Shown in pieces: positions 2,110-43,502 of a stretch of DNA of 64,000 nucleotides (positions are counted from its first letter, which is position 1; every line of letters begins with the position of its first letter). The stretch is taken from positions 15,654 to 79,653 of the forward strand of contig JAFGXO010000059.1 of assembly GCA_016936595.1 (NCBI GenBank), written 5' to 3'. Made by a program: the position numbers and the translations under genes. The stretch is from Bacteroidales bacterium (GTDB lineage: Bacteria; Bacteroidota; Bacteroidia; Bacteroidales; JAFGUD01). The notes beneath the pieces are model-generated. The model was given only the letters and a program-made list of their open reading frames with translations, had not been told where the DNA came from and did no database searches.

Positions 2110-2871
2110 TTGCGGAAACTGCAAAGACATTCCTTTTCGCATATTTTGCTGAGTAAAAAAACTTGGATCAACATCAATATCAAACTTAATAACATTCATC
2201 ATAATAACAGTCTTATTATCAGGATTATCCTCCGAAATTATTTCAAATTTTGTTGGAATTTCTCTTCCATCAAAAATTTTTATATCGCTCGCAATATGCG
2301 TTTTTACTAAAAAATCATCTTCATCGTAATATTCAGTTTTAAGAATCAAATATTTATCTTTTGAAACCCAAACAATTTGTTTTCCCCAAATAATTGTTGT
2401 GCTTAACTTTGGAATAAGTTCAATTTTCCAACAATCTTTTCCGGAAATTGTTTCAGATCCCAGAATTTTTTTATCATAATCGGTAATTATTGATCCTCCA
2501 TTTAAAAGCTCATCATTGGAATAATCAGAATTCATCCAACCTTGTGACATCATTGAAGGTCCGAGTTTAACAATACGACTAATTGCAGGATTCCACATCC
2601 ACATTTCATCTTCAACCATTAAATAAGTTTGACCTTTTTCTTTAGCAGGATTTGATATTAAAACCATTGAATAATCTTTTCCGAGACTACAAAATTTGAA
2701 TGAAACCTCTCGTTGCCAACGTGGTCTAACAATCTGCATTGTCATTTCAGCGTATTGCGATGCACCTTCGCTATTTTCATAAGCTTTTTGAATTATCTGA
2801 TTTGGGTCCTGAGCAAAAATTGTAATTGCCTCTACCAAAAACAAAATTAATATTGAAATTTTAGCTCTCAT
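2107..2871 (-). CDS. Outer-membrane lipoprotein-sorting (LolA-like) protein
   Basis: ATG at 2871 gives the signal peptide MRAKISILILFLVEAITIFAQ. The body (NPAKEKGQTYLMVEDEMWMWNPAISRIVKLGPSMMSQGWMNSDYSNDE) looks like the LolA-like family that accompanies FtsX permeases. The longer track start (2907) overlaps the TetR gene. Confidence 0.6.
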   Translation of the reverse strand: MRAKISILILFLVEAITIFAQDPNQIIQKAYENSEGASQYAEMTMQIVRPRWQREVSFKFCSLGKDYSMVLISNPAKEKGQTYLMVEDEMWMWNPAISRIVKLGPSMMSQGWMNSDYSNDELLNGGSIITDYDKKILGSETISGKDCWKIELIPKLSTTIIWGKQIVWVSKDKYLILKTEYYDEDDFLVKTHIASDIKIFDGREIPTKFEIISEDNPDNKTVIMMNVIKFDIDVDPSFFTQQNMRKGMSLQFPQ

Positions 2872-2875
2872 AATA

Positions 2876-3463
2876 TTATATTTTAAATTTATTTTTATAA
2901 AAATCAATTATTTTAATTTTCATTTTTTCAATCGGAAAATCAAACGGAGCAGCAACAAATTGTATAATTGCACCTTTAAGTAAAGACGAAAAAAACAACA
3001 TTTCAGTTTCAGGATCTTCACAATTTTTATTTTTGAAAAAATTATACAGAACAACAAAAACTTGCGGAGCTAACTGAGCTGCTTCGTCGGCAAGAAATTT
3101 TTCAACATCTTTTTGCATCGACAAAGCAGAGTATAATTTCCACTGAGCGGGATTTTCTTTTACAATTTCAAAATTCTTTTCAATAAAAAAAACAAATTCT
3201 TCATCAGTTAATGATCCCTCATTATCAGGATCAAAAAAATCATACATTCCTTTTACAAAATCGTGAATTATCGTTCTCAACAACTCTTCTTTGCTCGAAA
3301 AATAATTATATAAAAGACCTTTTGATATACCTGCTGTTTTTGCAATTTTTTGTACCGAAACACTATGAAAACCTTCTTCGGCAAACAAATGCAAAGCAGT
3401 ATCTTGTATCAACTGTATTTTTTCATTTCTAATAACTTTATTTTGATCTTCTGTACGTGGCAT
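2876..3463 (-). CDS. TetR/AcrR family transcriptional regulator
   Basis: N-terminal HTH FHSVSVQKIAKTAGISKGLLYNYFSSKEEL. ATG at 3463 (MPRTEDQ...), whereas the track start at 3490 is a TTG. The stop lies 4 nt before the LolA-like start. Confidence 0.85.
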   Translation of the reverse strand: MPRTEDQNKVIRNEKIQLIQDTALHLFAEEGFHSVSVQKIAKTAGISKGLLYNYFSSKEELLRTIIHDFVKGMYDFFDPDNEGSLTDEEFVFFIEKNFEIVKENPAQWKLYSALSMQKDVEKFLADEAAQLAPQVFVVLYNFFKNKNCEDPETEMLFFSSLLKGAIIQFVAAPFDFPIEKMKIKIIDFYKNKFKI

Positions 3464-3596
3464 ATTTTTTTTGACTGAACGGTTGGTCAAAGATAACAGT
3501 TTTTATTCTTACATTCATAATTTTTATCAAGTAAATTTTAAAAATAATTAAAAAAATTTCATTAAATAGCTGATTATATGATTGTTAGACACTTAA

Positions 3597-8200: not shown

Positions 8201-10114
8201 ATGGAAGAAGTAAAACATCAATTATTAGATAAAATAAATTACCCTACAGATTTTAAGCAACTTAATGAAGAAGAACTAATACAATTATCTTCAGAATTGC
8301 GAAAATTTATCATAGAAACTTTATCCAAAACTCCGGGGCATTTTGGAGCAAGCTTAGGTGTTGTAGAATTAACAGTTGCATTACACCACGTTTTTGATAC
8401 TCCTACCGATAAAATTGTTTGGGACGTTGGTCACCAAGCCTACGGACATAAAATTTTAACCGGCAGAAAAGACCGCTTTAACACCCTCAGAAAATTAAAC
8501 GGAATAAGCGGTTTCCCAAACATTTTTGAGAGCGAATACGACGCATTTACTGTAGGTCATTCATCTACATCTATTTCAGCAGCTCTTGGTATGAGTATTT
8601 CATCGAAATTACAAGGAAAAAACAATAACGTTATTGCAGTAATTGGCGATGGCTCAATGACTGCCGGACTTGCTTTTGAAGGAATTAATAATGCGGCAGT
8701 TAGTAAATCAAACATTCTTATTATCCTGAACGACAACGACATGGCTATAGACCCCAACGTTGGAGCACTAAGCAAATATTTTACTCGTTTTACCGCATCA
8801 AAAAGATATAATAAACTTAAAAAAGAAGTTTGGGACAGTTTAGGGAAACTAAGCAAATTAGGCGACAGAACACGCGAATTTGTTAGAAAAATTGACACCG
8901 GAATTAAAAGCTCACTTATTCAGGAAAGCACGTATTTTGAAGGAATGGGCTTACGATATTTTGGACCAATTGACGGACATTGTATGCACGACTTAATTGA
9001 AGTTTTACAAGACCTTAAAGAAATTGACGGCCCAAAATTACTTCATATTAAAACAGTTAAAGGAAAAGGATACAAATTTGCCGAAGAAAATCAAACAAAA
9101 TGGCACGCCACAAGTGCTGCTTTTGATATTGAAACCGGGCAAGTTATTAACACCGGAAACGAAAAACCAAAACCACCTAAATTTCAAGATGTTTTTGGCA
9201 AAACAATAATTGAACTTGCAAAACAAAACGAAAAAATTGTTGGAATAACTCCTGCAATGCCATCAGGCTGTTCATTAAATATGATGATGAAAGAAATGCC
9301 CGAACGAGCTTTTGATGTTGGAATAGCCGAACAACATGCTGTAACATTTTCGGCCGGATTAGCCGTTGACGGAATGATACCTTTTTGCAACATATATTCA
9401 ACATTCATGCAACGTGCTTATGATCAAGTTATTCATGATGTTGCACTACAAAATTTACACGTTATTTTTTGTTTAGATCGCGGAGGACTTGTTGGTGACG
9501 ATGGAGCTACTCATCACGGGGCATACGATTTATCATACATGCGTTCTGTTCCAAACATGGTTGTAGCTTCTCCTTTTGACGAAATTGAACTAAGAAATTT
9601 AATGTACACTGCTCAACTTGAAAAAAACAAATTCCCTTTTACCATCAGATACCCCAGAGGAAGAGGCAGTAATATTGATTGGCAAAAAGATTTTTCCGAA
9701 ATTATAATTGGAAAAGGAAGAATAATTACCAAAGGAGACGATATTGCAATTTTAACAATAGGTGCTATTGGATCAGAAATTGTTAAATCTATAGAACTAC
9801 TAAAAAACGAACATATAAGTGCAGCTCATTACGATATGCGTTTTGTTAAACCACTTGATGAAGAACTTCTTCACCAAATTTTCAGCAAATTTAAACACAT
9901 AATAACCGTTGAAGACAATTCAATTATTGGAGGTCTTGGTACTGCCGTGGTAGAATTTATGAATGCAAATAATTACAATTCTGAAATTAAGATTTTGGGT
10001 ATTCCTGATGAATTTATTGAACAAGGAACTCAACAAGAATTATACAAGATTTGTGGTTTCGATTATTTATCTGTTTCTAAAACAGCCAAAAAAATGCTTG
10101 TTATTCAAAAATAA
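8201..10114 (+). CDS. dxs: 1-deoxy-D-xylulose-5-phosphate synthase
   Basis: 637 aa. Contains PGHFGASLGVVELTVALHHVF, WDVGHQAYGHKILTGR and the TPP motif IGDGSMTAGLAFEGINNA. Confidence 0.95.
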   Translation: MEEVKHQLLDKINYPTDFKQLNEEELIQLSSELRKFIIETLSKTPGHFGASLGVVELTVALHHVFDTPTDKIVWDVGHQAYGHKILTGRKDRFNTLRKLNGISGFPNIFESEYDAFTVGHSSTSISAALGMSISSKLQGKNNNVIAVIGDGSMTAGLAFEGINNAAVSKSNILIILNDNDMAIDPNVGALSKYFTRFTASKRYNKLKKEVWDSLGKLSKLGDRTREFVRKIDTGIKSSLIQESTYFEGMGLRYFGPIDGHCMHDLIEVLQDLKEIDGPKLLHIKTVKGKGYKFAEENQTKWHATSAAFDIETGQVINTGNEKPKPPKFQDVFGKTIIELAKQNEKIVGITPAMPSGCSLNMMMKEMPERAFDVGIAEQHAVTFSAGLAVDGMIPFCNIYSTFMQRAYDQVIHDVALQNLHVIFCLDRGGLVGDDGATHHGAYDLSYMRSVPNMVVASPFDEIELRNLMYTAQLEKNKFPFTIRYPRGRGSNIDWQKDFSEIIIGKGRIITKGDDIAILTIGAIGSEIVKSIELLKNEHISAAHYDMRFVKPLDEELLHQIFSKFKHIITVEDNSIIGGLGTAVVEFMNANNYNSEIKILGIPDEFIEQGTQQELYKICGFDYLSVSKTAKKMLVIQK

Positions 10115-10159
10115 TATTCAAAACAAATGTAATTTATTATCTTTTTCAAAAAAAGAAAC

Positions 10160-11002
10160 ATGTTCAAAACAAATTATCACAACCATTCAAAATGGAGCGA
10201 CGGAAAATATAATCCCGAAAAAACTGTACTTAGAGCAATAGAGCTGGGCTTTGATATTATCGGATTTTCAGACCATTCGCCGGTGCCATTTAAAAGCGAA
10301 TGGAATATGAAATACGAAAATCTTCTAAAATATATAAGCGACATAAATAATTTAAAGGAAAAATATAACGAACAAATTAAAATATATCTCGGCCTTGAAG
10401 CCGATTTTATAAACGGCATTTCATACATAAAAAATTTTAAACATCTTGGCTTAGACTACACAATTGGAGGAGCACATTATCTTCCGGAAACTTTTGAAGA
10501 TGGTACAATTTTTAACATTGATAACACTGATGAAATTTTTCAGCGTGGATTATCGGAACTTTATAATAACGATATTAAATTTTTAGTTGAAAGATATTAT
10601 AACGCAGTAAATCAAATGATTGAAGAAGACTCTCCAGACGTAATTGCACATTTAGATTTAATTGAAAAATTTAACAAAAATCACAAATATTTTGATTCAA
10701 AAGCCCAATGGTATCAAAAAATTGTTGATAACTGCCTTAAAACAATTCAAAAAACAAATTGTATAGTAGAATTGAATTCGCGAAGTTTATACAAAGGATT
10801 ATTAGACGACTTTAGTCCGAAAATAACAATTCTGCAAAAAATGTTAAACCTAAAAATACCTGTAACAATTAGCGGTGATGTTCACAATCCCGAAGAAATG
10901 GAGTTGTTTTGGAAAAAATCAATAGAAAATCTTAAATTTGCAGGATATAAAGAGATGATGCTTTTTGACCAGAACAAATGGCAAATTCAAAAAATAGACT
11001 AA
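10160..11002 (+). CDS. PHP-domain phosphoesterase, HisJ (histidinol-phosphatase) family
   Basis: N-terminal YHNHSKWSDGK, then GFSDHSP and HLD motifs typical of PHP/HisJ. 280 aa. Confidence 0.7.
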   Translation: MFKTNYHNHSKWSDGKYNPEKTVLRAIELGFDIIGFSDHSPVPFKSEWNMKYENLLKYISDINNLKEKYNEQIKIYLGLEADFINGISYIKNFKHLGLDYTIGGAHYLPETFEDGTIFNIDNTDEIFQRGLSELYNNDIKFLVERYYNAVNQMIEEDSPDVIAHLDLIEKFNKNHKYFDSKAQWYQKIVDNCLKTIQKTNCIVELNSRSLYKGLLDDFSPKITILQKMLNLKIPVTISGDVHNPEEMELFWKKSIENLKFAGYKEMMLFDQNKWQIQKID

Positions 11003-12022
11003 ATGCAAAAAGATTTTCATTACAATGTTATCAGAATATTGGCAGAAAAATCAGGATTTACAGCAAATGAAGCTCAAATTATTGCATACTCTTCACAATT
11101 TGTTGATGATGCAACAGAATTTTCGCCAATAAAAATCCCCGAAGATGTAAAATGCGATTTTTCTAGACTTAATGAAAACATTTTAGACCCTGTATGCACG
11201 GCACACAAAGGATTGCAATTTTTGGGTGATTTTAAAAAAAGCGTTCAAATGAAAATATATTTTAGTTTTCATTTTTTACCGCCCGAAATATACACCAATC
11301 AAAAAAATTACGATTACATTACAAAATCCAACAGCAACTTTGGAAAAGCATTGATGAATAAAGCCATCGAAAATTTTAATTCTAACACTAATAGCAGAAC
11401 GTATAATCTTATAGCACTCGGCATAGCTCTTCATACCTATGCCGACACTTGGTCTCATCAAGGATTTTCCGGAAGAAAAAGCACAGAAGAAAATAATGTT
11501 GAAGATATTAAATTATGGTCAGATAAAAAATGGGATAATATAAAAGCTATTAACCGCTTACGAAACCTAATATTACCCGAAATAGGTCATGCAGAAGCAT
11601 ACCATTATCCTGACCTTCCATATCTGAATTGGGAATATAAAAAAAACGCAAAGTTAAAACAAATTACAAGAAATAATCTTGATATTTTTATTAACGCAGT
11701 TGAAAATATTTACAACTATTTAAGTAAAATTTCCCCCAATGCCCCCCAAAATATTTCAGAAATAAAACCACAACTTATAAAAGGCTTATCATACGTCGAA
11801 GACGATTACAAAAAAAGAGCCGAAAAATACCAGAAAATTTTTCCTGAAATAGGATTTCATTACAATCCTGAAGACTGGAAAAACGAAGTTTTAAATACAA
11901 AATCAAAAAAATTTTCAACAGATATTATAAACAGAGAAAAACCAATATACAAATGGTTAATTTTTCACCAAGCAGCTTTAGACCAACGAAATTATGTAAT
12001 AGAAAGGATAAAACCACTTTAA
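11003..12022 (+). CDS. Conserved hypothetical protein with His/Asp-rich motifs (possibly a metal-dependent hydrolase fold)
   Basis: The ATG directly abuts the stop of the PHP gene (11000-11002 TAA, 11003 ATG). Motifs: FHYNVIRILA, ALHTYADTWSHQGFSG, IGHAEAYHYPD. Function not recognisable. Confidence 0.4.
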   Translation: MQKDFHYNVIRILAEKSGFTANEAQIIAYSSQFVDDATEFSPIKIPEDVKCDFSRLNENILDPVCTAHKGLQFLGDFKKSVQMKIYFSFHFLPPEIYTNQKNYDYITKSNSNFGKALMNKAIENFNSNTNSRTYNLIALGIALHTYADTWSHQGFSGRKSTEENNVEDIKLWSDKKWDNIKAINRLRNLILPEIGHAEAYHYPDLPYLNWEYKKNAKLKQITRNNLDIFINAVENIYNYLSKISPNAPQNISEIKPQLIKGLSYVEDDYKKRAEKYQKIFPEIGFHYNPEDWKNEVLNTKSKKFSTDIINREKPIYKWLIFHQAALDQRNYVIERIKPL

Positions 12023-36193: not shown

Positions 36194-36222
36194 GCCGTCT
36201 AACTATCATTAGACGGCTTTTG
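36194..36222. terminator. Intrinsic terminator shared by rpsT (+) and the radical SAM cluster (-)
   Basis: GCCGTCTA-actatcat-TAGACGGC is a perfect 8-bp stem followed by TTTTG. It lies between the stops at 36166 and 36234. Confidence 0.65.
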
Positions 36223-36233
36223 TTGTTATACAA

Positions 36234-37556
36234 TTAAAAAATATTTGGGGTAATTCTTCTTTTGATATAATATCTATAGTGCATATTTATACCAATTGAA
36301 AAAAGCAACATTTTAGGATTCCGCCAAAGATACTTATTAAACAAAGTTCTGTTTATTATACTTTTTAACGAAAAAGTTTTGCGATTAAGCCACCAATACA
36401 TTTCAGTTAATTTTTCGGGCGTAATTTTTTTAGGAATATGCACACATTGAGAGCCATCAAAATCTTTCCAATTTTCGGTTAATAATCTACCTTCGTCTTG
36501 ATATTGTCTATACAAATTGGTGCCGGGAATAGGCGTTAAAATATAAAATCGCGGAATAGGAACTTTATTTTTATTTATAAAATCAAATGTTTTTCTTATG
36601 CTATCCTCAGTATCCTCATCAGTACCAACAATCATCTCTGTGCTTACGGTTATACCGGCTTCACTTAAAATTCTAAAATTTTCGGCATGTTCACTTGCTT
36701 TAAGCCAAGGTTTTTGAATACTATTTAAAGCCTCCTGACTAATGCTTTCAACACCAAAGCTCATTAAATCGCAACCGGATTTTACAACAACATCAAGCAA
36801 ATCAGGTTTTTTAGCCAAATGCAAAGCACACTGGCTAGCCCAATTCATTTTTAAAGGAGTTATTTTTTCACATAATTCACGCAGATATTTTGGGTTAGAA
36901 ACAATGTTATCATCTATTAAATAAAACCGTTTAAATCCCAATCTTTTAACTTCTTTTATATCCCTAATAACCTCATCTACAGGCCTAAATATATATTTTC
37001 CTTCGTACAAACAAGCAATAGAACAAAAAGAACATTGAAAAGAACACCCCCTACCCGCCTGAACAGGCAACATATTGCCAATTGATTTTTGAGTTAACAA
37101 ATCATAACGAGGCAAGGGTAAATTTTTAAGTTCAGTAATTGGGTGATTATAAATAGGTTTTAATATACCGGTTTGCTCAAAATCTTTAAGCATTAAATTA
37201 AACGATATTTCGGCATCACCAACAACAACGCTGTCAACATGCTTTAAAGTTTCTTCGTAGGCAATAGAAGCCATGTATCCACCCATAACAACCGTTTTAC
37301 CGCGTTTTTTAAACTCGTGTGCAATTTCGGCTCCTCTAAAAATTGCATGCCCCATTGTGCCTATTGCAATCAAATCAGCATCGCTGTCAAAGTTTATTTT
37401 ATCAACTACTTCAATTGCAACTTCAATATCCCAATGTTTTGGAGTATATGCAGCTAAAAGAGGGAACGCTAATCCCGGCAGATTAATTTTTCTCTGAGTA
37501 CAAAGTTTTCCGTTTTCGGCGTATTGAGTTGGTTGTATGAATAATATTTTTGGCAT
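36234..37556 (-). CDS. B12-binding domain-containing radical SAM protein
   Basis: N-terminal Rossmann-like B12-binding region (ILFIQP...DLIAIGTM...VVMGG). Radical SAM motif AGRGCSFQCSFC. 440 aa. Confidence 0.8.
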   Translation of the reverse strand: MPKILFIQPTQYAENGKLCTQRKINLPGLAFPLLAAYTPKHWDIEVAIEVVDKINFDSDADLIAIGTMGHAIFRGAEIAHEFKKRGKTVVMGGYMASIAYEETLKHVDSVVVGDAEISFNLMLKDFEQTGILKPIYNHPITELKNLPLPRYDLLTQKSIGNMLPVQAGRGCSFQCSFCSIACLYEGKYIFRPVDEVIRDIKEVKRLGFKRFYLIDDNIVSNPKYLRELCEKITPLKMNWASQCALHLAKKPDLLDVVVKSGCDLMSFGVESISQEALNSIQKPWLKASEHAENFRILSEAGITVSTEMIVGTDEDTEDSIRKTFDFINKNKVPIPRFYILTPIPGTNLYRQYQDEGRLLTENWKDFDGSQCVHIPKKITPEKLTEMYWWLNRKTFSLKSIINRTLFNKYLWRNPKMLLFSIGINMHYRYYIKRRITPNIF

Positions 37557-37630: not shown

Positions 37631-39004
37631 TTATTTAATCCTTTTGCTGTTTTTTATTTTTTGTTGATATTGTTTTCTAACCCTTGAGCTTCCGGCAATC
37701 ATTTTCCCGAGCATATCTGATCTATATAGTTTTAGATATTTTAAAAGCACTTTAGGTTGAAATAAAATTTTATTATATGCTTTTAAAATTTGTTTGTAAT
37801 AATTGGCAACACTCATTTTACTTGGTTTAATAGAAACATGAGCTAAATCCCATTTTTCAAACTCTTCTTTTTTGATTAAAAGTTTATCTTGAGGATAAGT
37901 AAAACCTGTTTTTGGTAAAGGTGTAAGAGGCTGTAAATTAACATAATGTATTCCAATAGATTTAACAGACTTTATCATTTTTTTAAAATCATTTTTATCC
38001 CAATCCGGCGAAACAATCATTGTTGCATAACAATCAATTTTATTTTCGTTTAGCACTTGCATTGTTTTTTTATACAAATCGGCATTTGTTTTTTTATTAT
38101 ATTTTTTTAAATCCTCTTCAAAAAAACTCTCAAAACCTACAATTACAGTACGAAGTCCAATTTTTGCTAATTTTTTAATTAAATCAGGATTATTTGCAAC
38201 AAAATCCGCCCTCCCATAAACCAAATATTTTTTGTCAATTTTTTGTTCAATAGATTTTTCAATAAATAATTCAAGACGCTTTTTATCAGTCAAAAAATCA
38301 TCATCAACAATATAAATTTCTTTTTCAGGAATAGTTTTAAGCTCCTCAAAAACATCATCAAGCGACCTTTGATTATACTTTCCGGCTGTTATAACCGAAC
38401 AAAAACAAAACGAACAATTAAAAGGGCAGCCATAAGAAGTTTTAATAAGAGCAACTTTATCATGAAAAATGTAAAAATATTTGTCTCGATATTTTTCAAC
38501 CGATTTTCTTACTGCCCAAGGAACATAGAAATTAAAATCCGGCAACTTTAATAAATCTAATTTTTCATTTTTCGCTAATATTCCGGCAGGTAAATCATTT
38601 TTTTGATCAATGTGATTTAATAAATCGGTAAAAACAATTGCAGCATTACGAACAACTCTAAAATCAACAGCCTCATTTTCAAAATCTTCCGGCACAATTT
38701 CGCAATGAACACCGCCAACAATTGTTATTGTTTCAGGATTATCAGCTTTTGCAATTTTACAATAGTCGATTATTATTGAAACATTAGTAATATATCCCGT
38801 AAGGCAAACAATATCAGGTTTATGCAAATGAATAAAATATTCAAACGAACGTTCTTCAACCAACATGTCGATAATTTCTGCTTCGTCGGTTTCCCGAACA
38901 AGCCCGAACAATATTTCTAATTCCAATGGTTCAACAATCATTAAATGCTGCAAACCAATTGTTTCAGGCGATGCATGAGGGCGAATAAATAATATTTTTG
39001 ACAA
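37631..39004 (-). CDS. B12-binding domain-containing radical SAM protein (second, divergent copy)
   Basis: N-terminal ILFIRP...DIVCLTGY...TIVGGVH, then SYGCPFNCSFC. 457 aa. Confidence 0.8.
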   Translation of the reverse strand: MSKILFIRPHASPETIGLQHLMIVEPLELEILFGLVRETDEAEIIDMLVEERSFEYFIHLHKPDIVCLTGYITNVSIIIDYCKIAKADNPETITIVGGVHCEIVPEDFENEAVDFRVVRNAAIVFTDLLNHIDQKNDLPAGILAKNEKLDLLKLPDFNFYVPWAVRKSVEKYRDKYFYIFHDKVALIKTSYGCPFNCSFCFCSVITAGKYNQRSLDDVFEELKTIPEKEIYIVDDDFLTDKKRLELFIEKSIEQKIDKKYLVYGRADFVANNPDLIKKLAKIGLRTVIVGFESFFEEDLKKYNKKTNADLYKKTMQVLNENKIDCYATMIVSPDWDKNDFKKMIKSVKSIGIHYVNLQPLTPLPKTGFTYPQDKLLIKKEEFEKWDLAHVSIKPSKMSVANYYKQILKAYNKILFQPKVLLKYLKLYRSDMLGKMIAGSSRVRKQYQQKIKNSKRIK

Positions 39005-39097: not shown

Positions 39098-40102
39098 TTA
39101 AAATGTATTTTTCGAAAAAACATTAAAACTTTGAATTTGCCGATTATATCCCAAAGATTTTTCAGCCATTTTTATAAATTTGTTAAAAAATTTATTACTA
39201 TGTTTAGCTTGAATATATCTTTTTTCAATATGCCCACCCATTCGTAATTTGGGGATTTCAGCTGTTTGTCCAAAATCAATATATTCAACTTTTTGTTCAA
39301 TTCCTTGTTTAACAATATTGACCAAGAGCCTTAGATAAGTGCTATTTTCAGAATTAAATTTGTAATCAATTCCACCGAGAAAAAAATAGAAATAATTTTT
39401 ATATTTAGCCGTAATATTCCAACCAATTACGTTATTTTGTTTTTTACAAACAGTTAAATTAAAATTAGTTGGCAAATTTTTAAAAAACTCAAAGTTAAGT
39501 TTTTCTAATTTATCTTTACTTTTATAAAAAACTTGCAAATATTGTTCATACATTTGTTCAGTAAAATGATGACAACTGTATTCTAAAAGCTCAATATTGC
39601 TTGTATATTGGATCAAATTTAATCTTCGGCGATAATTAGCCCTAAGTTTAGCAAAATAATCGTCCCACGAGCAAAAAGTATTTTTAAGTACAATTGTAGG
39701 AAGAGTATTTCCGGTTGCCAAAAATTTTTTTTCGGGTTTATTATACAGATTTAAAAAAACAACCAAACCTTTTTCGGCATCAAAAATATAATCAGTTAGC
39801 TTTTCAACAATATTTATTTCACCAAAAATACCCTGAGCCGAAACCGACGCAGGTATTCCCACAATATTCATTTTTAATGGGCTTTTTATTCTCAGAAACG
39901 TTAAAAAATCTAACCTAATAGAGTACATAACTGCCCCACCAACAAATTCACGGTTATTAAAACACTGATAGTAACGTTGTTCGCAAGGATTGTATTTTTG
40001 AGCATGAACTAAAAATTCTTTTGTTTGGAAATAATTAGAGGTAAAGTTATCCCAATCATTATGCAAATCAAGAGCAGTATTTATTTTTTTTATTTTAAAC
40101 AT
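39098..40102 (-). CDS. FemAB-like / GNAT-superfamily acyltransferase-like protein
   Basis: 334 aa. The C-terminal YFYFFLGGIDYKF...YIDFGQTAEIPKLRMGG resembles the FemAB-like acetyltransferase family pattern. Recognised by eye only. Confidence 0.45.
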   Translation of the reverse strand: MFKIKKINTALDLHNDWDNFTSNYFQTKEFLVHAQKYNPCEQRYYQCFNNREFVGGAVMYSIRLDFLTFLRIKSPLKMNIVGIPASVSAQGIFGEINIVEKLTDYIFDAEKGLVVFLNLYNKPEKKFLATGNTLPTIVLKNTFCSWDDYFAKLRANYRRRLNLIQYTSNIELLEYSCHHFTEQMYEQYLQVFYKSKDKLEKLNFEFFKNLPTNFNLTVCKKQNNVIGWNITAKYKNYFYFFLGGIDYKFNSENSTYLRLLVNIVKQGIEQKVEYIDFGQTAEIPKLRMGGHIEKRYIQAKHSNKFFNKFIKMAEKSLGYNRQIQSFNVFSKNTF

Positions 40103-40177: not shown

Positions 40178-41263
40178 CTACAAATCATCTTCAAAAACGG
40201 CAAATTGCCTGTATGGTTGTGGTTTTTTACCATAAACCCGTTGTAAAATTCGAGAAACAAAAGCGATAGAAGCTCTGTTTTCTTCAAAAATAAAACCACC
40301 TTCGCAAAACTGATATTTTTTTTGAATTAATTTTGATAATGATTTGCTTATTAGAGCTAATGCAACCGGACTACGCTGAAATTGGGGAATTACACCAATT
40401 TGAGTAAACCTAAAAGTATTAATTTTATTGGTTAAGCGATATTTTAAAACATCAAAAACATTTAATTCTCTATGATTATCAACAATTTGATTAAAATCAG
40501 GATACCATAGATAAAAACCAACAGGAGTACCATTAATTTCGGCTATAATAAGATGCTCATTATCAAGCAAAAATCTAAACGGATAAAATAATTCCTGATC
40601 CTCTTCAATATCTCTGTCAGCCCAATAAACGTGTTTTACAAAAGACAAATTATTAAGCTTAGTATATATTGCACTTTCTTTATTAATATCTCCTTTATTC
40701 ATAAACCGAACATGTAAACTATCTAACTTACGATCAGGATTATACATCTTAGCCCATTCGTGGTAAGCATCCATCGAAAATTTAAAAGTGTACATTTTTC
40801 TTTGTAGCAAATTTTTAAAATAATTCGAATAATAAGGCGGATTATACGACAAGCCAAATAATGGAACTTCATCAAACTTATTTTGCAAAATCCCTGCTCC
40901 GTAATTTATATGTCCGTTTAGCCCAACAACAATCTTAGAACATTCGGGGATATAATTTTTTGCCGTTTTTTTTATCAACGGATAAATATCGCCTAAACCT
41001 TCGTGTGCTTCAAAAAAAGAAACCTGTATATAATCTAACAAACGATAATCATTTATTAAAGCAAATTTTCCTACAATATCATTTCCATCTCTCATTAGGT
41101 ACATTCTTGAAGTAGAATGATTCTTAAAAGAAGATTTATCTAGCAGGAGCATTTTTTCTATACCTGCCTCGGTTCCTCTATAAAATTTATTGTTTTTATA
41201 AACTGAATTATTAACACTTATAAAAGTATTAAATGCCGATTTATCAATTCTTTCAATTTTCAA
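40178..41263 (-). CDS. Uncharacterised protein with a C-terminal GNAT-like fold
   Basis: 361 aa. ...IAEINGTPVGFYLWYP...FTQIGVIPQFQRSPVALALI resembles GNAT beta4-alpha3 (motif A region). Confidence 0.35.
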   Translation of the reverse strand: MKIERIDKSAFNTFISVNNSVYKNNKFYRGTEAGIEKMLLLDKSSFKNHSTSRMYLMRDGNDIVGKFALINDYRLLDYIQVSFFEAHEGLGDIYPLIKKTAKNYIPECSKIVVGLNGHINYGAGILQNKFDEVPLFGLSYNPPYYSNYFKNLLQRKMYTFKFSMDAYHEWAKMYNPDRKLDSLHVRFMNKGDINKESAIYTKLNNLSFVKHVYWADRDIEEDQELFYPFRFLLDNEHLIIAEINGTPVGFYLWYPDFNQIVDNHRELNVFDVLKYRLTNKINTFRFTQIGVIPQFQRSPVALALISKSLSKLIQKKYQFCEGGFIFEENRASIAFVSRILQRVYGKKPQPYRQFAVFEDDL

Positions 41264-41328: not shown

Positions 41329-41997
41329 CTATTTATAAATATTCTTTTTGAGAACTAAGCCATGTTTTTTAACATCGCCAATAATTTCCTCATCAGGAGG
41401 CCAATAAACTACACCATTAGGTTCATTATAAGAATAATAAATTGCATTATGATGTCCATTATTTTCAAAAACTGTATTTTTAATTTTCAAATTAGGACCT
41501 TGATAAATAATTGAATACTGACTATTTTTATGAATATAACAATTTTTGACTTGCATTTTATTACAATTATAAGAGGCTATCCCAACAATTCCACAACCAT
41601 TTAAATCACAATTATCAAAAACAGCAGAAGAACAATTTTGAATATAAACAACATTACCGGTGCAGCCTATAGGCCCCTGAGGCTCAACATGAGTTGCTTT
41701 TATATTTTTAACAGTAACACCATCGCAATCAAGTATATTAAAGACGTTTTCGGAAGTAGAACTTAAAACAAATGTAGCACCTTGACCATCAATGGTTATA
41801 TTATTTAAACCTGATATAACAATTGGTTCAGAAGTGGTATAAATTTTATTTTCAAGAGTGATAACACAATCAGAACCTGCATTTAAAAGAGCATCTTGCA
41901 ATTGTTCAATACTTGCAACATTTTGTGCATCAGAATAAAATGGATATACTATAAAATTTAGAACAAAAAAAGTCCAAAACAGCAAAGTATGTTTCAT
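41329..41997 (-). CDS. Secreted right-handed parallel beta-helix repeat protein
   Basis: Signal peptide ending SDAQN. Repeated coils: ITIDGQGATFVL, VTVKNIKATH, VYIQNCSSAVFDNCDLNGCGIVGI, MQVKNCYIHKNSQYSI. Confidence 0.6.
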   Translation of the reverse strand: MKHTLLFWTFFVLNFIVYPFYSDAQNVASIEQLQDALLNAGSDCVITLENKIYTTSEPIVISGLNNITIDGQGATFVLSSTSENVFNILDCDGVTVKNIKATHVEPQGPIGCTGNVVYIQNCSSAVFDNCDLNGCGIVGIASYNCNKMQVKNCYIHKNSQYSIIYQGPNLKIKNTVFENNGHHNAIYYSYNEPNGVVYWPPDEEIIGDVKKHGLVLKKNIYK

Positions 41998-42015: not shown

Positions 42016-43161
42016 TTAAAAAAAAATTTCCTGAGGTTTCATAAACCCTAAAAACTCAGTATAAGAAGAAGCAGAATATGAGCCACCATTACCAAAAACA
42101 ACTACATCACCAATTTTAAGTTCAGGCAAATTCCTATTAGCACAAAATATATCACGAGAATAAGTTGAAGAACCAAAAATTGTTGTTAAATATTTTTTAT
42201 CAGAGTTAAGAATTTCCTCATTTCTGATTATTAAAGCAGGATGGTTTGCAGTATCGGGATAAAGTAATGGTCTGGAAAATTGAGTTGTTGAAGCATTTAA
42301 GCCTGCTAAAATTTGATTGTCGCGTTTTTTAATATCTGTAATGTAAGCAACAAAATGACCGGCAATTCCGCCAATAATTCTACCGGGTTCCAATATCAAT
42401 TTAAGGTTTTTTTTGTGCATTTCAGACGCTTTTTGCATAAGTTCTGAAACTTTTAAGCCATAAGTATATACATCAAAGTTTGTTTCACCATCTTCCGAAA
42501 CACCAAAGCCTCCACCAAAATTTAAGTATTCGATGTTTGGAAACAAAAATGAAAGTTCAATAAGCTCATTATAGCAAGCCAAAAAATATTCAAGATCAAA
42601 AATATCGGTACCGGCATACAAATGTAAACCTTTGATAATATGCTTATTATCCATATTCTTAAGTTCATCAACTGTAAAACCCAGCCGACTTTGTTTACCA
42701 ATAAAAAAACCTGCACGAGTAGAATAAGGCTCAACTTTATCACCGATATTACACCTAATACCAACCTTTTGGTCGGAGTAAAGTTTTTGCCATATATCAA
42801 ATTGACGAGGTGAATCGAGATTTAATTGAGCACCGGCAGAATGAATTTTCCGCATAGTTTTTTCAGATAAAGCCGATGAAGTAAAAATAATTTGTTCATC
42901 TGTAAAACCAGCTTTCTGAACAGCCTCCATGTGTATCAATGAATTAACAAAAACATTTATTTTTTCTTCGTTCACTATTTTCAAAAATTCATTATTAATG
43001 TTTGCCATAGTAGCAAAATGTATTGCTTTATTTTTATACGGAATATCGTGAAACACCCGACAATTTTGTCTAATTTTTTGAGATTCGTATATATAAAACG
43101 GATCAAATTCGCCCTTAGCAAGCAAATTTATTTTGGAAAGCAAATTAGGATTAATCTTCAT
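42016..43161 (-). CDS. Orn/DAP/Arg decarboxylase (fold-type III PLP) homolog with substituted catalytic residues
   Basis: Retains FGGGFG, LEPGR and the GSYSASSY (GAY-like) motifs. It has FATMAN where the family has YAxKAN (Met52 codon at 43006-43008). It also has LHLYAGT in place of HxGS, and GSSTYSRD in place of CESGD. Confidence 0.7.
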   Translation of the reverse strand: MKINPNLLSKINLLAKGEFDPFYIYESQKIRQNCRVFHDIPYKNKAIHFATMANINNEFLKIVNEEKINVFVNSLIHMEAVQKAGFTDEQIIFTSSALSEKTMRKIHSAGAQLNLDSPRQFDIWQKLYSDQKVGIRCNIGDKVEPYSTRAGFFIGKQSRLGFTVDELKNMDNKHIIKGLHLYAGTDIFDLEYFLACYNELIELSFLFPNIEYLNFGGGFGVSEDGETNFDVYTYGLKVSELMQKASEMHKKNLKLILEPGRIIGGIAGHFVAYITDIKKRDNQILAGLNASTTQFSRPLLYPDTANHPALIIRNEEILNSDKKYLTTIFGSSTYSRDIFCANRNLPELKIGDVVVFGNGGSYSASSYTEFLGFMKPQEIFF

Positions 43162-43184: not shown

Positions 43185-43192
43185 CAAAGTTA
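43185..43192 (-). promoter_or_regulatory. -7 box TAACTTTG (minus strand) for the 43161 cluster
   Basis: The reverse complement of CAAAGTTA matches TAnnTTTG, 24 nt upstream of the ATG at 43161. Confidence 0.4.
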
Positions 43193-43284
43193 AAAATTTT
43201 AATATTAAAACGATAAAAATATTTATTGCAAGGGGAAAAATAAACTTAATGAAATATAAATCAAACAAATATAGTGATAAAAAA

Positions 43285-43356
43285 TAGCCCCAACAGGAAT
43301 CGAACCTGTATTTAAAGTTTAGGAAACTTCCGTTCTATCCGTTGAACTATGGGGCC
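43285..43356 (-). tRNA. tRNA-Arg (anticodon CCU)
   Basis: The reverse complement folds as a cloverleaf. Acceptor GGCCCCA/TGGGGCT (G1:U72), D stem GTTC/GAAC, anticodon loop TTCCTAA, T arm ACAGG-TTCGATT-CCTGT. CCA is not encoded. Confidence 0.85.
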
Positions 43357-43398
43357 AAAAAAAAGCATTATAAGCACTATCATAATTAAGATGAGCTT

Positions 43399-43426: not shown

Positions 43427-43428
43427 TG

Positions 43429-43502
43429 CTCTCCAGGTTGGACTTGAACCAACGACACCCGGATTAACAGTCCGGTGCTCTAACCAACTGAGCTACTAGA
43501 GA
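43429..43502 (-). tRNA. tRNA-Asn (anticodon GUU)
   Basis: Reverse complement: TCTCTAG TA GCTC AGTTGGTTA GAGC A CCGGA CTGTTAA TCCGG GTGTC GTTGG TTCAAGT CCAAC CTGGAGA G. 74 nt. Confidence 0.9.

Follow-up and report, generated by a model that had tools for sequence, protein, structure and literature searches.

We analysed a 64,000-nucleotide stretch of a Bacteroidales genome (GenBank assembly GCA_016936595.1, contig JAFGXO010000059.1, positions 15,654 to 79,653 of the forward strand; referred to hereafter as the window), in which six co-directional genes, A to F, lie on the minus strand. The leading gene (gene A, 42016–43161) had been proposed, from the DNA letters alone, to encode a relative of diaminopimelate (DAP) and ornithine decarboxylases that lacks the lysine forming the Schiff base with pyridoxal 5′-phosphate (PLP), together with other catalytic residues.

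A decarboxylase homolog without its Schiff-base lysine

Gene A is an intact, full-length homolog of the fold-type III (DAP/ornithine decarboxylase) family that has no Schiff-base lysine. Its uninterrupted reading frame of 381 residues matches PF02784 (1.8e-18) and PF00278 (1.7e-10), giving the architecture of that family—an N-terminal PLP-binding triosephosphate isomerase (TIM) barrel followed by a C-terminal sheet domain—and an AlphaFold2 (AF2) model, computed from an input of 20 family members (mean per-residue confidence, pLDDT, of 88), has DAP and ornithine decarboxylases as its best Foldseek matches (template-modelling score, TM, 0.78–0.87). LysA (PF02784 + PF00278; TIGR01048; structures 2yxx, 2qgh, 1knw and 1twi) is the best match in both sequence and structure, sharing the TIM barrel and β-sandwich with gene A. 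Its NCBIfam model, TIGR01048, is likewise the best for gene A, at 151.6 bits against a curated cut-off of 297.9; two sibling subfamilies (P0163 and P0137, 187 and 177 bits) also fall below this threshold.

HMMER alignment to the solved DAP decarboxylase 2yxx sets the register without ambiguity. FAvKAN of 2yxx aligns with FAtMAN, placing Met52 at the Schiff-base lysine; GLHVHIGS aligns with GLHLYAGT, exchanging His for Tyr182 and Ser for Thr185; and GPLCESGD aligns with GSSTYSRD, exchanging Cys for Thr333, Glu for Tyr334 and Gly for Arg336, such that Asp337 is the sole residue kept from the trans-subunit loop (C-E/D-x-G-D) and the Cys proton donor is absent. FGGGFG (215–220), EPGR (258–261) and GSY (360–362) are all retained. 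Set against LysA as a whole, gene A keeps the Gly-rich phosphate loop, EPGR, the GxY tyrosine, R-P-x-x-Y and the final Asp of the trans loop, and is without the Schiff-base Lys, the docking Asp/Glu, the stacking His, the second Lys (SKFG) and the Cys-Glu pair. The original prediction had read these same features by eye (Met52 from an ATG codon, LYAGT for HxGS, TYSRD for CESGD, the kept FGGGFG, EPGR and GSY motifs), and each reading is borne out by the alignment and the DNA, which place no lysine elsewhere in the PLP site.

Features of gene A, with the evidence for each in brackets:
42016–43161, minus strand: gene A (P0001), 381-residue Lys-less fold-type III PLP-decarboxylase homolog (Pfam, HMMER alignment, AF2, Foldseek)
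43006–43008, minus strand: codon 52, ATG (Met), at the Schiff-base Lys position (alignment and DNA reading)
42607–42618, minus strand: codons 182–185, Y-A-G-T in place of H-x-G-S (ring-stacking His, phosphate Ser) (alignment, orthologs)
42508–42516, minus strand: codons 216–218, G-G-G phosphate-binding loop, kept (orthologs, loci, group comparison)
42379–42390, minus strand: codons 258–261, E-P-G-R (Glu to pyridine N1, Arg to phosphate), kept (orthologs, group comparison)
42151–42165, minus strand: codons 333–337, T-Y-S-R-D in place of the C-E-S-G-D trans-subunit loop, Asp kept (alignment, orthologs)
42076–42078, minus strand: codon 362, the phosphate-binding Tyr of the GAY motif, kept (orthologs, group comparison)

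The substituted residues are conserved in their own right. Among 5.8 billion proteins searched there were 725 relatives, and the best 120 of these, nearly all of ~381 residues and 57–74% identical to gene A, were aligned: M52, Y182, T185, T333, D337, the GGG loop and EPGR are invariant, with Y334 in 119 and R336 in 118 of the 120. Orthologs thus carry M/Y/T at the positions in question, not K/H/C-E. A scan of one genome per species yielded 73 loci, and in the 70 rows available for residue counts (69 full-length copies plus the window protein) Met52 is found in 69, the remaining row having Gln, and Y182, T185, T333, Y334, D337, E258, R261 and Y362 are each present in all 70. The hosts span Bacteroidota, Bacillota (among them the cultured Ruminiclostridium hungatei DSM 14427, homolog at 9932–11089 of locus L051), Spirochaetota, Leptospiraceae, Cloacimonadota, Myxococcota, Krumholzibacteriia and Pseudomonadota. 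Fixation of this kind is far beyond chance. In favour of a sequencing or assembly error at this codon, or of a strain-specific pseudogene, ATG differs from the lysine codon AAG by one base; yet the frame is intact, methionine occupies the site in all 120 orthologs and in 69 of 70 locus rows across many phyla, and at least seven further positions are altered in concert. Because the ortholog, locus and tree results (the last given below) show fixed and coordinated substitutions, such an artefact is refuted and keeps practically no probability, as had been argued at the outset from the number of independent changes. Reads of the DNA run that probably gave the assembly cover gene A with 0 differences, which is not independent support.

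Gene A is not the single odd paralog first envisaged. A family profile was run against 1.84 billion representatives clustered at 50% identity, giving 387 matches below 1e-30, and the best 150 were aligned. Rows with Lys52 carry His182 and Ser185 and mostly Cys-Glu at 333–334; non-Lys rows have Met (83%) or Phe, Val, Ile, Ser or Ala at column 52, with Tyr182, mostly Thr185, and T/V/A followed by Y/F/L/A at 333–334. For phylogeny we used 118 full-length rows (50%-identity clusters; 70 Lys-less and 48 Lys-bearing) with the trait columns 52, 182, 185, 333 and 334 removed. All 70 Lys-less rows fall on one side of a single branch (Shimodaira–Hasegawa-like approximate likelihood ratio test, SH-aLRT, 98), the minimum number of changes between Lys and non-Lys states is 1 (compared with ~37 when labels are shuffled), and the window protein sits inside an all-Lys-less set of 41 rows (SH-aLRT 99). 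Since the root of the tree is not known, we call the two sister groups and neither of them derived. Gene A, with its non-Lys residue at 52, Tyr182, Thr185 (Thr or Ser in the clade), Arg159, Phe370 and its place on the Lys-less side of the branch, is on these grounds a member of a deep, diverse, large and old Lys-less sister clade of the DAP decarboxylase (DAPDC) branch.

Columns separating the two groups (gene A numbering):
Column 52: K (100%) in Lys-bearing rows; M in Lys-less rows
Column 71: D/E in Lys-bearing rows; F/C/H/Q in Lys-less rows (F71 in gene A)
Column 77: E/D in Lys-bearing rows; H or E in Lys-less rows (H77 in gene A)
Column 159: K (the second active-site Lys, SKFG) in Lys-bearing rows; R in Lys-less rows
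Column 182: H (96%) in Lys-bearing rows; Y (96%) in Lys-less rows
Column 185: S in Lys-bearing rows; T in Lys-less rows
Column 291: G in Lys-bearing rows; S in Lys-less rows
Columns 333–334: C-E in Lys-bearing rows; T-Y/F and others in Lys-less rows
Columns 370–371: Y-N in Lys-bearing rows; F-L in Lys-less rows

By alignment, we take columns 52, 71 and 77 to be Lys69 of ornithine decarboxylase and the Asp88/Glu94 pair on which the lysine docks once displaced, column 182 to be the ring-stacking His197, and column 333 to be the proton donor Cys360; on these correspondences, the lysine has been replaced jointly with the side chains that assist it. The residues that hold the cofactor behave otherwise: G216–218, E258, G260, R261, Y362, R136, N54 and S74 show no less conservation among Lys-less rows than among true decarboxylases, in keeping with the earlier view that the phosphate and pyridine-nitrogen motifs are preserved, and the DAPDC-type residues R297, Y301 and D337 are kept as well.

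A Schiff-base lysine that had migrated within the chain, or to a partner subunit, would make gene A an ordinary decarboxylase after all. Migrated catalytic residues are described for other pseudoenzyme-like families (PMC10211241), and K45, K173, K278 and K375 are conserved within the orthogroup. K278, however, is kept equally in Lys-bearing and Lys-less groups and is therefore structural and not compensatory, and K45, K173 and K375 are lysine in only 21, 20 and 11 of 87 Lys-less rows; the AF2 model places the first two where barrel strands have their N-terminal ends, which by TIM-barrel geometry face away from the active site. With no column in the aligned group comparison that is lysine solely in the Lys-less group, and with this patchy occurrence of the other three, a migrated lysine is very unlikely.

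No NCBIfam model claims any of the subfamilies tested, and no solved structure lies in the clade: a Lys-less profile run against the Protein Data Bank (PDB) best matches canonical DAPDC (7e-59), with no other match standing out above it. A literature search, conducted largely outside subscription journals, turned up no work that treats Lys-less fold-type III homologs or the cassette described next.

The gene A cassette and its distribution

The neighbours of gene A in the window are two acyltransferases and two B12-binding radical S-adenosylmethionine (SAM) enzymes, with a β-helix protein interposed.

Other features of the window cassette:
41329–41997, minus strand: gene B, 222-residue right-handed β-helix protein between A and C (PF13229; weak NosD-like match)
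40178–41263, minus strand: gene C, 361-residue tandem-GNAT acyltransferase (AF2 pLDDT 90; Foldseek)
39098–40102, minus strand: gene D, 334-residue FemAB-like GNAT (Acetyltransf_6; Pfam)
37631–39004, minus strand: gene E, 457-residue B12-binding radical SAM enzyme (best named match an HpnR-type C-methylase, below the family cut-off)
36234–37556, minus strand: gene F, 440-residue B12-binding radical SAM enzyme with CxxxCxxC, nearest the ApyD/PhpK type (Pfam/NCBIfam)
43185–43192, minus strand: TAACTTTG, Bacteroidota-type −7 promoter box, 24 nucleotides upstream of the gene A ATG (read from the sequence), which we assign to the Bacteroidota consensus TAnnTTTG
36194–36217, minus strand: terminator-like hairpin of 10 pairs, 17 nucleotides downstream of gene F (sequence)

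The fold of gene C is closest in Foldseek to the glucosamine N-acetyltransferase 5kf1, to MshD and to the tandem GNAT from the clavulanate pathway; neither C nor D had a significant profile match among PDB sequences, C is placed by fold alone, and the ESM Atlas offered generic GNAT clusters only.

The original prediction that gene A leads a radical SAM/acyltransferase cluster agrees with synteny. The order A-C-D-E-F recurs across the 73 loci with unrelated flanks, and clustering of their open reading frames (ORFs) finds A in 68, C in 62, D in 52 and B12-binding radical SAM enzymes in 54 (143 proteins); apart from these, no cluster occurs in more than 8 loci. In almost every locus of sufficient length gene C comes directly after A, and gene F is the most conserved gene of the cassette. 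Apart from the window, gene B occurs in the closest locus (L039) alone, which marks it as a lineage-specific insertion outside the conserved cassette. Variants include extra B12-binding radical SAM enzymes (up to four per locus), a short form (type 2) consisting of A, C and a SPASM radical SAM enzyme, and C-D fusions of ~713–732 residues (L058, 8797–10938; L144, 6003–8144; L145, 3995–6193), which argue that the two acyltransferases work together. Some of the fusion carriers are Myxococcota; others are further metagenome-assembled genomes (MAGs). Within 1.2 kb of the cassette there is no conserved small ORF that could be a precursor peptide, only alternative frames of a downstream radical SAM gene, and this search gives no support to reading the window cassette as one for a peptide made by the ribosome and then modified post-translationally (RiPP).

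Cassette genes usually overlap by 4–8 nucleotides, as they do in most other loci, compared with spacers of 18–93 nucleotides in the window; tight translational coupling seems to have been lost in the window lineage. Two tRNA genes, tRNA-Arg(CCT) at 43284–43357 and tRNA-Asn(GTT) at 43428–43502, both on the minus strand, are found a short distance upstream of the cassette promoter and are separated by a terminator-like hairpin (43427–43406). An RNA-library run of the same study gave two exact short contigs, one inside A (42616–42799) and one inside E (37985–38184); since DNA may have been carried over, these hint at transcription weakly at best. A further RNA run (X2) gave no match.

Carriers are rare. 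Of 151 genomes from the window's order, 5 (its own among them) have gene A matches at E ≤ 1e-40, and two of the five matches are partial or interrupted by stops; among 401 sampled Bacillota genomes, 3 have profile matches at E ≤ 1e-55. Such patchy occurrence between unrelated flanks fits horizontal spread, and gene A is best explained as an accessory, horizontally mobile biosynthetic enzyme, distinct from the housekeeping LysA. Five cassette genomes each hold a separate and more distant family member (E 1e-26 to 1e-49), presumably the canonical LysA. In the window's own genome (85% complete) the only other PF02784 protein has 456 residues and keeps the Lys, His and Cys; its gene adjoins an ATP-grasp-like gene of 346 residues (minus strand, 1081–2451 and 2487–3527 respectively of L001, contig C58), and it is not an obvious housekeeping LysA.

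Gene contexts of other Lys-less subfamilies

Most of the Lys-less subfamilies examined here are encoded beside radical SAM enzymes. Besides the window's own arrangement, three contexts show this: plasmids of Mesorhizobium, Sinorhizobium meliloti and soil loci, and the type 2 cassettes. On the Mesorhizobium plasmids a radical SAM enzyme and a B12-binding radical SAM enzyme directly adjoin the Lys-less gene that follows them (M..N.H..Y.T..TYRD). One such locus, on the Mesorhizobium loti plasmid p_2 (L081; CP050294, 58094–75519), encodes NTF2, a DegT aminotransferase, a split transketolase and the two radical SAM enzymes, and further holds the Lys-less decarboxylase homolog, DUF3050, a BtrH-N domain protein and a P450, and as a whole resembles a so far uncharacterised cluster for a natural product.

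The second context is defined by a subfamily that we refer to as ‘MYTTF’, in which S. meliloti GR4 plasmid pRmeGR4a (L082, 7620–14614) and 26 of 28 soil-metagenome loci (within L086–L128) share one conserved gene order: SnoaL/NTF2, a QueA-like protein (PF02547, 5e-76), a PqqD-like protein, a SPASM radical SAM enzyme, a 683-residue B12-binding radical SAM enzyme (ApyD model, 273 bits), the Lys-less protein and a CPBP protease. Gene F of the window is nearer than gene E to these ApyD-like partners. With its PqqD-like component the ‘MYTTF’ cassette looks RiPP-like, no precursor search having been made there.

Elsewhere the partners differ. One Lys-less subfamily carries fused domains, a spermidine synthase in five distinct clusters and a class I methyltransferase in a sixth; its unfused members come from Sorangium, Cystobacter (C. 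fuscus), Actinosynnema, Catellatospora and Clostridium pasteurianum. A sample of 400 Bacillota and 300 Myxococcota genomes yielded few carriers and, for the spermidine-synthase-fusion subfamily, no close ortholog.

Fused Lys-less proteins:
P0131 and P0275–P0278: spermidine-synthase fusions of 697–707 residues, one of 654 (complete domain, NF002010, 230 bits)
P0133: class I SAM methyltransferase fusion of 731 residues

On plasmid Cy782202 of Gloeothece verrucosa PCC 7822 (L142, 322399–323628) a Lys-less member with Val at the lysine position lies between two AsnB-like (asparagine-synthetase-like) genes, near SAM methyltransferases and a PEP-CTERM gene, and with no radical SAM enzyme near it; a radical SAM partner is therefore not universal among the subfamilies. 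The common thread is accessory biosynthesis with SAM-dependent enzymes, most often though not universally radical SAM enzymes. A Gemmobacter plasmid fusion of a decarboxylase homolog to an acyl-CoA dehydrogenase was set aside as Lys-bearing.

Candidate functions of the Lys-less protein

The reading that we favour, at a probability of roughly 40%, is that gene A encodes an enzyme that would bind PLP non-covalently, decarboxylate the amino-acid end of a pathway intermediate and feed the neighbouring acyltransferase. In this scheme PLP would be held without an internal aldimine, Met52 serving as a near-isosteric, non-nucleophilic stand-in for the lysine; the free α-amino-acid end of the intermediate would condense directly with the cofactor aldehyde; the carboxylate would be lost in a pocket made more hydrophobic by F370 and L371; and the proton would come from Tyr334 of the partner subunit or from His77. 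The amine product could then be handed to the tandem GNAT (gene C) and on to D, while the B12-binding radical SAM enzymes E and F might C-methylate this product or its precursor.

Non-covalent binding of PLP is suggested because the phosphate loop, the N1-contacting Glu, the Arg and the Tyr are constrained as in active enzymes. Decarboxylation is favoured because the DAPDC-type Arg, Tyr and Asp substrate residues are kept, because the pocket at 370–371 is more hydrophobic, because a Tyr takes the place of the acidic residue beside the lost Cys, and because the downstream tandem GNAT is of an amine-acylating kind and relatives are fused to domains of the aminopropyl-transferase type. Several points weigh on the other side. 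Ornithine decarboxylase K69A reportedly loses ~10^4-fold activity (Osterman et al., 1999, Biochemistry 38:11814), the lysine being said in the same work to speed Schiff-base exchange, decarboxylation and product release. Without compensation from other residues, a Lys-less decarboxylase should therefore be slow. The usual Cα proton donors (Cys and Lys) are both lost, and the case for PLP binding comes from the conserved contact residues. A simple decarboxylase role would, moreover, leave the recurrent radical SAM link of several subfamilies unexplained, a link that is itself not common to all of them, as the Gloeothece plasmid member illustrates.

Accessory decarboxylases in biosynthetic clusters offer the nearest parallels to the role proposed for gene A. 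BtrK, a glutamyl-carrier-protein decarboxylase, the N-terminal domain of MccE, which decarboxylates a 3-amino-3-carboxypropyl group on microcin C, and likewise SbnH and FigC (FigC/FslC) act on an amino-acid moiety joined to something larger, and the A–GNAT and spermidine-synthase-fusion layouts match those of SpeD/SpeE and MccD/MccE (PMC7857480; PMC11350588). In MccE the decarboxylase domain is coupled to a GNAT domain and acts after a SAM-dependent transferase, mirroring both the A-then-GNAT order and the fusions of the relatives. BtrK, SbnH and FigC are PLP enzymes with solved structures that gene A matches only at the level of the canonical family, and unlike gene A none of these decarboxylases (BtrK, MccE, SbnH, FigC/FslC) is known to be paired with a radical SAM enzyme. 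LysA itself differs from gene A, which is accessory and lodged in a mobile cassette. The radical SAM/PLP-decarboxylase pair of phage thymidine hypermodification is only a loose analogy, because it is modelled on a different PLP enzyme and its predicted internal-aldimine lysine is kept (K92 in ViI gp226; PMC8989533).

That the protein may instead be a non-catalytic pseudoenzyme, serving the acyltransferases or the radical SAM enzymes as a subunit for ligand binding, scaffolding or regulation, is possible on the strength of its losses (at least five catalytic residues replaced, at K52, D/E71, E77, K159, H182 and C-E333–334), and dead subunit paralogs are known among polyamine enzymes, in the antizyme inhibitor and the trypanosomatid prozymes (PMC3663545). 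We nonetheless regard this as a serious but less likely rival, as the replacing Tyr, His, Thr and Arg do not vary either and are capable of chemistry, strong purifying selection acts on all of the cofactor-binding residues, the cassette has no active paralog to regulate, and the spermidine-synthase fusions suggest an enzymatic step. The classic dead paralog of ornithine decarboxylase, the antizyme inhibitor AZIN1 (3btn, 4zgz), has the same fold and an inactive-looking site (match to the Lys-less profile, 7.6e-21), and is a eukaryotic regulator, a recent offshoot of that enzyme that sequesters antizyme and is not known to bind PLP; the gene A clade, in contrast, is bacterial and deep, with invariant cofactor residues. 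Neither hallmark of the antizyme-inhibitor type—loss of the cofactor residues, and an active paralog or its regulator as partner—is found for gene A. The kept PLP grip, Arg297, Tyr301 and Asp337, and the spermidine-synthase fusions would fit a catalytic, amine-producing enzyme at least as well as a scaffold. Of the original proposal of a non-decarboxylating paralog with a binding or scaffold role or a new chemistry, the parts that discount an error and call for a new function stand, and the exclusion of decarboxylation goes beyond the evidence.

The third possibility keeps the cofactor and dispenses with decarboxylation: the protein would hold PLP or pyridoxamine phosphate (PMP) non-covalently, carry an amine substrate as a stable external aldimine, there being no Lys to displace it, and present it to the (B12-)radical SAM partner. 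This account best explains both the radical SAM linkage and the loss of the two active-site lysines (52 and 159), each replaced by a non-nucleophilic residue; three other Lys-less contexts adjoin radical SAM enzymes, and gene F is the radical SAM enzyme of the window nearest to the ApyD-like partners. Precedents exist in part. Lysine 5,6-aminomutase and ornithine 4,5-aminomutase combine non-covalent PLP in a TIM barrel with adenosylcobalamin and radical chemistry, the PLP stabilising substrate radicals, and the ColD/E1 (AscC) sugar dehydratases are natural Lys-less PLP/PMP enzymes in which a His replaces the Lys, the cofactor is non-covalent and the chemistry is new. Gene A departs from the former in the family of its barrel, their radical source being adenosylcobalamin and their lysine coming from the B12-binding subunit, and from the latter in that they are fold type I enzymes with nucleotide-sugar substrates and no sequence relationship to the fold-type III gene A. 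Physical contact between A and a radical SAM enzyme lacks support, the SpeE and methyltransferase fusions and the Gloeothece AsnB context are without a radical SAM neighbour, and we know of no B12-binding radical SAM methylase that needs PLP. On balance it is a live but rather improbable rival that the Lys-less barrel is a new, trans-acting PLP/PMP module whose external aldimine would let a radical SAM enzyme (mostly B12-dependent) methylate or rearrange an unactivated carbon; such PLP-assisted radical SAM chemistry, divided between two proteins, would then have spread horizontally in several types of cassette, small-molecule and RiPP-like.

PLP enzymes are conventionally defined by their Schiff-base lysine, and a strongly selected clade that lacks it while keeping the cofactor pocket would point either to Lys-independent PLP chemistry or to a new role for the fold. 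Source annotations give clade members as ‘hypothetical’ or as ‘diaminopimelate decarboxylase (family protein)’. Since carriers exist in culture (R. hungatei DSM 14427, Saccharicrinis sp. FJH62, Mesorhizobium, S. meliloti GR4 and Bradyrhizobium), the function can be tested directly. Automatic annotation of this kind misstates the capacity for lysine biosynthesis in MAGs, and it hides a family that marks orphan radical SAM cassettes in anaerobes, on rhizobial plasmids and in myxobacteria.

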